5,076 bases of DNA from a virus (lineage: Duplodnaviria > Heunggongvirae > Uroviricota > Caudoviricetes), in IMG/VR virus record IMGVR_UViG_2663762849_000013; one strand, 5' to 3'. Made by a program: the position numbers and the translations under genes. Shown one piece after another: positions 1,022-2,920 of the stretch. The stretch's first letter is position 1; the number at the start of each line of letters is the position of its first letter. The notes beneath the pieces are model-generated. The model did no database searches and was not told the DNA's origin. It saw only the letters and a list, made by a program, of their open reading frames with translations.

Positions 1022-2920
1022 TTAAAAATCAGCCTGACTCGGGATCAGTTTTTGCCAGATTGCTGAAACTTGTTTTGCCTGGTGACGGGCATCGTCCAGC
1101 GCATTGTGGGGTACGCCTTCGAATGGAATAGCCATTCTGACATCAAAGCCAATGGCATTACCCAGTTCAACGATTGTGCGTACATCGCGATCGTTGTAGT
1201 AAAGCCACGGGTAGGGGATCCCCTGCCGTTCATATGAACGGCGTAAAATTACGTTGTCGAAGTTGGCTCCATTTCCCCATATCTGAACAAAAAATTCACC
1301 GGAGTTTTCGTCGATAAATTCCCGCAATTGTAACAGTGCATCATCTAACGGGATTTCATCGGTCATAATGGCAGACTGCGCTTCACGTGATTGCTTCAGC
1401 CACCTTTTAATGACGTCACGATCAATGACTCCGCCAGCAGTTTCCAGATCGATAGTCTTACTAAATTCCGGTCCCATACCTCCGGTTTGCGGATCGAAAA
1501 ATATTGCACCTATTGAGATAATCGGGGCATCAGGATTTTTTCCCATGGTTTCAAGGCCTATCATTAGATGGTCACACGTCCTGCTGGTGGATGTGATTTC
1601 GTGATGACCGTTCACCTTAATTGAGTGATCTGCCGTCTCGCCAGTTTCATTATCGCTATCGTGATGCTGATTGCCGCCAGCATTCTCCTTGTGTGGATGT
1701 TCAGCGCCTTCCATTTTCTCCGGATCATCTTCCTGAACTTCAACCTGATACTCTTCATCGAATGTTTCCTGGTATGTTGCGTCGCCCATCACCGCGCCAC
1801 AATCAGGGCAGTTGCCGCCGCCGGTCTGACCGCAGGCGGTGCAGACTTTTTCCACTTCCTGTTGCGCCACTGGTTCAGGCTGTTTCGTTTCTGGCTCGTT
1901 TTGTAACGCATTTGGGCTGTTTTGTTCCGCTTTTTGGTAGTTCCGTTCCGATTCATGCTGGTTCTGGTTTACAGAATCGCGGGTCTGGATCCCCTTAACC
2001 CATTTCGGATCATTCGGGGCGCTAATCCCTTCAACAAATTCACCACGTGATACTGCAAGCAGTTCATCGGCGTCAGGCTGGCTGATATTGGCTGCCTGCA
2101 TAATTTTGTTTACTTCGTCAGCGGTAACTTTTACCGGCTCTGGTTGTGCGGTCGTGTCAGATGCACCAGTATTTTGTTGTGAACCTGAGTATGTACTGTT
2201 TTTGCGGGCGAAATATTCTTCTTTCGTGATTTCAGTAGCCCCGGCAGCCAGCGCCTTATCCAGACCAGAAAGTTTGTTTGCGCGACCGTATTTTTCGCCA
2301 TCCTTGTCGGTGAAGAGGAAGTAGAACGGCCCCTCACGCTCTACAGATGGTTCGACTTCCACTTTGCATTCGGTTTTTTCGTTGTCCGGAATTGCCGTTT
2401 CCACTGCATCAGTTTCTGGTACTGGCGACGAGAGAGTATCAGTTGCGCTCTGATTTGTTCCTTCATCTTCAAACACGCCCTTTGTAGTCAGGTATTCAGT
2501 AATGTATTTGTTCAGTGCCACAGGGTCTTTGTGAATGTCGATCGGACGTTCACGGACAAGGCCAAAAATAGTCTGGCGGTCGTAGCGAAGGGCATCAGGC
2601 TGTTTGCGCATTGATGCCGAGATACGCTTCCAGTCTTCGCGGTCGTTGTCGATAACTTCATTTTTTGCCCAGCGATGGATGCTGCCGTCAATGTTTCCGG
2701 CATCCACATCACCAGGCCAGAGAGCGTAGGCCAGTTCGTCATCCAGTGTTTTCCATGTCTGCTTGTATTCGCGATGAATGGTAGCAATGACCGGGCTGAT
2801 TTTTCCTGTTGAATTTTCAGTGTGCTGTTGATTGGTTCTGGCGCGGGCGAGATCAACAACAGACGTGTATTTTCCGGTTTCCTTGCGTTCACCTTCGCGA
2901 CGTTTTTTCCAGATGCGCAT
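1022..2920 (-). CDS. Large prophage exonuclease-like protein (often annotated as putative exodeoxyribonuclease VIII), C-terminal 632 codons with an Rv2179c/DnaQ-like 3'-5' exonuclease domain; in frame with the upstream 184-codon ORF across one TAG
   Basis: The C-terminal ~180 aa carry DEDDh-type motifs: IGLETMG...PIISIGAIF (motif I region), IWGNGANFDNVIL (motif II) and HNALDDARHQ (motif III). The middle of the protein is an acidic Q/E-rich linker with a CxxC-x7-CxxC zinc ribbon (VCTACGQTGGGNCPDCG). It lies between ydfD/dicB and xis, where lambdoid prophages carry their exo-type genes. Confidence 0.8.
   Translation of the reverse strand: MRIWKKRREGERKETGKYTSVVDLARARTNQQHTENSTGKISPVIATIHREYKQTWKTLDDELAYALWPGDVDAGNIDGSIHRWAKNEVIDNDREDWKRISASMRKQPDALRYDRQTIFGLVRERPIDIHKDPVALNKYITEYLTTKGVFEDEGTNQSATDTLSSPVPETDAVETAIPDNEKTECKVEVEPSVEREGPFYFLFTDKDGEKYGRANKLSGLDKALAAGATEITKEEYFARKNSTYSGSQQNTGASDTTAQPEPVKVTADEVNKIMQAANISQPDADELLAVSRGEFVEGISAPNDPKWVKGIQTRDSVNQNQHESERNYQKAEQNSPNALQNEPETKQPEPVAQQEVEKVCTACGQTGGGNCPDCGAVMGDATYQETFDEEYQVEVQEDDPEKMEGAEHPHKENAGGNQHHDSDNETGETADHSIKVNGHHEITSTSRTCDHLMIGLETMGKNPDAPIISIGAIFFDPQTGGMGPEFSKTIDLETAGGVIDRDVIKRWLKQSREAQSAIMTDEIPLDDALLQLREFIDENSGEFFVQIWGNGANFDNVILRRSYERQGIPYPWLYYNDRDVRTIVELGNAIGFDVRMAIPFEGVPHNALDDARHQAKQVSAIWQKLIPSQADF

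Follow-up and report, generated by a model that had tools for sequence, protein, structure and literature searches.

A DexA-like exonuclease gene in an Escherichia coli lambdoid prophage is very probably a catalytically dead allele that later became a pseudogene

Introduction

In DEDDh exonucleases, the motif I aspartate contributes a carboxylate that ligates both catalytic metal ions. T4 DexA, a 3′-5′ exodeoxyribonuclease, is the closest characterised relative of the nuclease domain described here, and its E. coli homologue EcD, proposed as the anti-T4 exonuclease 'HREX', was reported to protect against T4 by degrading 5hmC-DNA (PMC12153337). The catalytic set of DexA consists of D7, D119, H186 and D191, corresponding to D12, D103, H162 and D167 of Pol III epsilon, and the motif I Glu of DexA is printed as E12 in the same paper (PMC12153337) and aligns as E9 in the present alignment. 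DexA and EcD are stand-alone enzymes (227 aa in the case of DexA) with a complete catalytic set.

Further points of comparison are the Rv2179c-like 3′-5′ exoribonuclease family (PF16473), whose name implies an RNA substrate, the RecE protein (exonuclease VIII) of the Rac prophage, and the 823-aa phage exonucleases of phrog_2082, such as WP_179231430.1 of E. coli EC2. Titles and abstracts retrieved in a literature search for Rv2179c or YdfE pointed to no paper relevant to the catalytic residues of the family.

Here, we analysed a stretch of 5076 bp (the window), which is the whole of draft contig CCBY01000343.1 of GCA_000936105.1 (E. coli). An initial annotation had read in it a DEDDh-type domain with Gly in place of the motif I Asp, and had offered two explanations, either that the nuclease is dead, a second hit in addition to an amber codon, or that the prophage family has a non-canonical active site.

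Results

The window corresponds to the early-left end of a lambdoid prophage of the Qin/PPompW type. In addition to the exonuclease gene, it contained the following features:

1..103: end of IS600 (IS3 family), which cuts the integrase; the contig terminates inside the repeat
93..731, minus strand: lambda-type integrase, first 212 codons only
709..957, minus strand: excisionase
3589..3777, minus strand: DUF1482/ydfD-like gene
3774..3962, minus strand: dicB
4137..4188, minus strand: DicF sRNA (full-length match to Rfam RF00039, 76.7 bits), flanked by ydfC and dicB, the arrangement of the K-12 Qin prophage
4531..4749, minus strand: ydfC
about 4842..5076, plus strand: IS1 end (insA start from 4897), at the contig end

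The prophage fragment was bracketed by IS copies, with IS600 at one contig end and IS1 at the other. Its gene order matched that of K-12 (dicF-dicB-ydfD-ydfE′-IS2-intQ′), and it shared with the 823-aa phrog_2082 exonucleases, such as that of EC2, the gene itself, the order int-xis-exo-ydfD-dicB-dicF-ydfC and a three-part protein architecture.

Two ORFs of the window corresponded to a single 2472-nt gene in complete E. coli genomes and temperate phages, the 823-aa product of which is annotated as 'exonuclease'. The phages with the intact gene were mEp460_ev081, Tritos, HannyBb and the PPompW family. The 632-aa protein from which the initial annotation started does exist as an ORF, but as a gene model it had to be replaced, because it is the distal part of the 823-aa protein split by a TAG codon. 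The parts of the gene were as follows:

1022..3493, minus strand: 823-codon lambdoid-prophage exonuclease gene, a pseudogene here, collinear with intact 823-aa CDSs
2939..3493, minus strand: ORF of the N-terminal 184-aa fragment, the YdfE_N/YdfE_C region (precomputed Pfam PF27430 and PF27432)
2939..2941, minus strand: amber TAG replacing Trp185, which is TGG in all relatives
1022..2920, minus strand: distal 632-aa ORF, starting at the internal Met192
1619..2710, minus strand: central segment, residues 262-625, homologous to RecE 278-591 (BLASTP against K-12 RecE, E = 1e-61)
1799..1843, minus strand: CxxC-x7-CxxC zinc-ribbon motif within the central segment
1055..1570, minus strand: C-terminal Rv2179c-like/DexA-like DEDDh 3′-5′ exonuclease domain (PF16473, E = 4.2e-60)

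The intact EC2 allele matched phrog_2082 end to end. All three regions of this 823-aa architecture were present and collinear in the window, and the reading frame was broken by the TAG at codon 185; the full-length architecture was read from annotated genomes, as the homologous proteins found were mostly partial or short. The window gene is the full-length counterpart of the K-12 pseudogene ydfE. The same TAG was found in four other draft assemblies, making five in all, which belong to one accession series. Since the window product ends at residue 184, the question of catalysis is largely moot in this contig, and weak re-initiation at Met192 would at most give a 632-aa product with a dead domain.

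The central segment resembled Rac RecE, being nearly identical to it around the zinc ribbon, and the gene, like recE, lies in the early-left region next to xis-int. Unlike in RecE, the C-terminal 5′-3′ nuclease domain is replaced by a DEDDh 3′-5′ domain, and no recT-like partner lies between the exonuclease gene and xis. Membership of the RecE family itself was rejected, with NCBIfam NF007259 scoring 280 bits against an equivalog cut-off of 1269 and matching the middle region only (residues 246-625). The combination of a RecE-like middle with a DEDDh C-terminus suggests that the nuclease domain was exchanged on a common scaffold.

In the nuclease domain, the motifs read initially were all recovered, HLMIGLETMG followed by PIISIGAIF, then WGNGANFDNVIL, then HNALDDARHQ, and the Pfam profile check bore out the exonuclease assignment. 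PF16473 matched residues 451-622 of the 632-aa ORF with 202.9 bits against a cut-off of 27, the match spanning profile positions 2-177 of 177, so that the domain resembles the Rv2179c-like family over the whole model and differs from it in missing the motif I Asp. The active-site positions and one further rare substitution were located as follows:

1556..1558, minus strand: Gly646, codon GGC, at the motif I Asp position; aligns with DexA D7
1550..1552, minus strand: Glu648, motif I, retained; aligns with DexA E9
1256..1258, minus strand: Asp746 (FDN), motif II, retained; aligns with DexA D119
1091..1108, minus strand: His796 to Asp801 (HNALDD), motif III, retained
1211..1213, minus strand: Tyr761, a rare substitution (IPCPW to IPYPW); Cys in 95.5% of cluster representatives

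Thus, motif I Glu, motif II Asp and the His and Asp of motif III were found in place, and the motif I Asp was not, Gly646 occupying its position (the GGC codon reads GCC on the plus strand). Four of the five DEDDh residues are therefore intact in the window allele, and E648, D746, H796 and D801 all fall in invariant columns. Tyr761 is the second rare change in the domain besides Gly646 and was seen in no cluster representative.

The AF2 model of the last 192 residues (pLDDT 87.8, pTM 0.85) placed Gly646 in strand beta-1 (residues 11-18), the canonical position of motif I. Foldseek matched the model first to T4 DexA (8KEN/8KEL), then to RNase T, Orn/REXO2 and Cap18, with a probability of 1.00 each, and model and matches together predict an RNase H-like DnaQ fold. 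DexA (PDB 8KEL/8KEN) was the closest solved structure both by profile and by fold, with the same layout of DEDDh motifs. The pairing of G646 with D7 of T4 DexA was obtained by single-sequence alignment and by profile (E = 8.7e-16), with MIGLE set on IIDFE (D7/E9). Related enzymes with the motif I Asp mutated to Ala have been deposited in complex with substrate, one example, also among the Foldseek matches, being PaOrn D11A (entry 7VA3).

In contrast to the stand-alone DexA and EcD, the window domain forms the C-terminal part of the 823-aa protein, and it has no equivalent of D7. HREX is characterised by a complete set of catalytic residues, a Trp and an Asp for 5hmC recognition, and protection against T4 (PMC12153337); in the window the catalytic set is broken at Gly646. 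Membership of a known defence system was rejected, no PADLOC defence-system model having matched.

To place the glycine within its family, we built an alignment from the 120 best representatives of clusters formed at 90% identity, which came from E. coli, Salmonella, Klebsiella, Citrobacter and others. Column 646 was Asp in all 99 representatives that cover it, and Gly in none. Six apparent non-Asp residues (H, E) at this column came from deletion or chimeric proteins out of register and were set aside as no substitutions. Among the individual cluster members that were read and cover the motif, Asp was found in 21 of 24, the others being one allele with Val and two with Gly, the window ORF and EC2. 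The motif is LMIDLETMG with GAC in close relatives and LMIGLETMG with GGC in the window, confirming that the two differ by one A-to-G transition. The downstream DLET was variable among representatives (D in 65, S in 29, N in 11, and others), its E equally so, and it was rejected as the true motif I on the ground that its position is not conserved. The initial annotation had named beforehand two outcomes that would count against a lost Asp, a Gly consensus or a DLET serving as motif I; what was found was an invariant Asp and a variable DLET.

Allele frequencies were obtained from exact matches of allele-specific 55-mers. The exact Asp-allele 55-mer occurred in 3339 complete-genome records, and the exact window 55-mer in five complete genomes, EC2 (Australia), SCU-104 (USA) and three SW0716xx isolates (Galapagos). 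In this respect the window, with its amber codon at Trp185 and a motif I Gly common to only five complete genomes, is unlike the phrog_2082 exonucleases at large, and phage mEp460_ev081 and the common alleles, unlike the window, have Asp at motif I. In all five genomes, the domain sequence was identical to that of the window, the ORF was intact at 823 aa with TGG at codon 185, and the prophage sat at the ompW site, its integrase bearing the annotation of an intact CDS. Over the final 619 nt of the gene, identity to the window was 99.8-100% in the five genomes, and 100% in EC2 and SCU-104. The intact Gly protein is on record for 25 contigs, and the progenitor background, ATA-GAC, was found in other strains. 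Because intact 823-aa ORFs with Gly exist in these five genomes, the missense preceded the amber codon; the Gly allele is real and arose by a single A-to-G transition.

Compared with the nearest Asp allele, the domain of the window allele showed 9 non-synonymous and 13 synonymous changes, a raw count that does not by itself show relaxed constraint. The changes specific to the window allele were D646G, D672G, V738I, C761Y and R764L, by which acids are lost and none is gained.

Other active-site changes were found in the same gene, two of them with centred allele-specific 55-mers carrying the variable base at position 28, such that every 28-nt seed spans that base. A second D646G, on another background (ATC-GGC), was present in the potC-site prophage of strain TW10690 (gene at 2092..4563 of its locus), the nuclease domain of which is only 92.8% identical to that of the window, and D646V (ATC-GTC) was present in strain TUM13064 (gene at 2092..4563 of its locus), beside a frameshifted integrase. 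Both are intact 823-aa ORFs; the Val allele also has D641G, and its protein is on record for 113 contigs. E648K and D746N were seen in two cluster representatives with shorter or partial sequences (P0008 and P0031), and a further representative, P0075, was set aside as frameshifted.

These alleles raise the possibility, which we regard as unlikely, that loss of the Asp is selected, either in that lysogens silence a costly nuclease and keep the rest of the protein, or in that a dead substrate-binding protein is useful. At least three independent replacements of Asp646 are present in ORFs that are intact at 823 aa (ATA-GGC at the ompW site, ATC-GGC in TW10690 and ATC-GTC in TUM13064), the Val protein is on record for 113 contigs, other representatives carry E648K and D746N, and at 25 °C overexpressed T4 DexA is toxic to its E. 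coli host (PMC12153337), all of which would suit selection. However, the non-Asp alleles among those tested are very rare, occurring in 7 genomes among the roughly 3945 with the gene (about 6200 copies), and the representative alignment contains no deeper clade fixed for a non-Asp residue. Across the 50 most conserved columns of the domain, 0-3 representatives deviated in each, and 0-1 in the catalytic columns; as the catalytic columns deviate no more than other conserved columns, the catalytic sites are not preferentially hit. Moreover, the window Gly allele has gained a stop and the Val allele stands beside a frameshifted integrase, which fits decay rather than maintenance. The rare non-Asp alleles would fit recent tip mutations of prophage genes with a neutral or mildly deleterious effect, and in the present data the recurrent, independent loss of catalytic residues from intact ORFs looks no different from background mutation.

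Discussion

We consider it highly probable that the exonuclease of the window, a known phage protein, is represented by an allele that lost its catalytic function and was later pseudogenised, the Gly being a lineage-specific loss-of-function polymorphism and not a family trait. A GAC to GGC transition replaced the metal ligand Asp646 of motif I. Glycine has no side chain for metal binding, so the Gly646 nuclease would be expected, from the DEDDh mechanism, to be inactive or nearly so, and we infer a loss of catalysis in this allele. The Gly allele would then have circulated for a while in an intact ORF, until codon 185 mutated in turn from TGG to TAG and the protein was truncated in the lineage of this contig; the prophage was also struck by IS600, which cuts the integrase, and by IS1. 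The proposal that a dead nuclease accompanies the amber codon is therefore supported by the invariant Asp (99/99) and its DexA counterpart D7, but the order implied by a second hit has to be reversed, with the missense first and the amber second. A counterpoint is the 2472-nt ORF of the Gly allele, which is still uninterrupted in five genomes, so that decay is not advanced there. The case is one of ordinary decay in a known phage gene and presents no novel active site.

With Mn2+, traces of activity survive the loss of one carboxylate in some DEDD enzymes. It is nevertheless very unlikely that the Gly646 enzyme retains useful activity, be it with Mn2+, by water-mediated metal binding via Glu648, Asp746 and Asp801, or through a compensating change: although four of the five DEDDh residues and, in five genomes, the ORF are intact, the family has an invariant Asp at motif I, no new acidic residue lies beside Gly646, and the allele-specific changes remove acidic residues without adding any. 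The reading of a prophage family with a non-canonical active site, having Gly as its motif I consensus or the DLET about 35 residues downstream as its true motif I, is refuted, as nothing beyond the window sequence speaks for it, whereas Asp outnumbers Gly by 99 to 0 at the column, both the D and the E of DLET vary, and the DexA alignment (D7/E9) and the beta-1 position in the AF2 model place motif I at Gly646. An error of sequencing or assembly as the source of the Gly codon, of the amber codon or of both is extremely improbable: the window is a 5-kb draft contig bounded by IS elements, but GGC recurs with identical flanks in five complete genomes, which come from three countries, 25 contigs have the intact Gly protein, and TAG at codon 185 is in five assemblies.

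With the dead-allele reading, the window copy is best annotated as a pseudogene, with an internal stop and a catalytic-site missense, and not as a 632-aa '3′-5′ exoribonuclease'. The intact Gly646 proteins of EC2-like strains, which are now named 'exonuclease', are probably inactive. More generally, when a catalytic residue is missing in a single prophage copy, the copy should be compared with its family before a non-canonical mechanism is proposed. Beyond annotation, the finding matters little; if DexA-like domains act in phage defence, as proposed for EcD (PMC12153337), natural dead alleles would be ready-made negative controls.

Over the whole gene, the window and EC2 differed at 34 nucleotides, 32 of which were clustered in the first 222 nt (3272..3493, minus strand), and the remaining 2250 nt contained two differences, the amber change and one missense. 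This clustering points to a putative recombination mosaic at the 5′ end of the gene. As a separate observation, contigs of three unrelated assemblies end no more than 3 nt from codon 184/185 of the exonuclease gene, which may mark the boundary of a repeat or of a mosaic, or may stem from the way contigs are selected in an exact-protein look-up.
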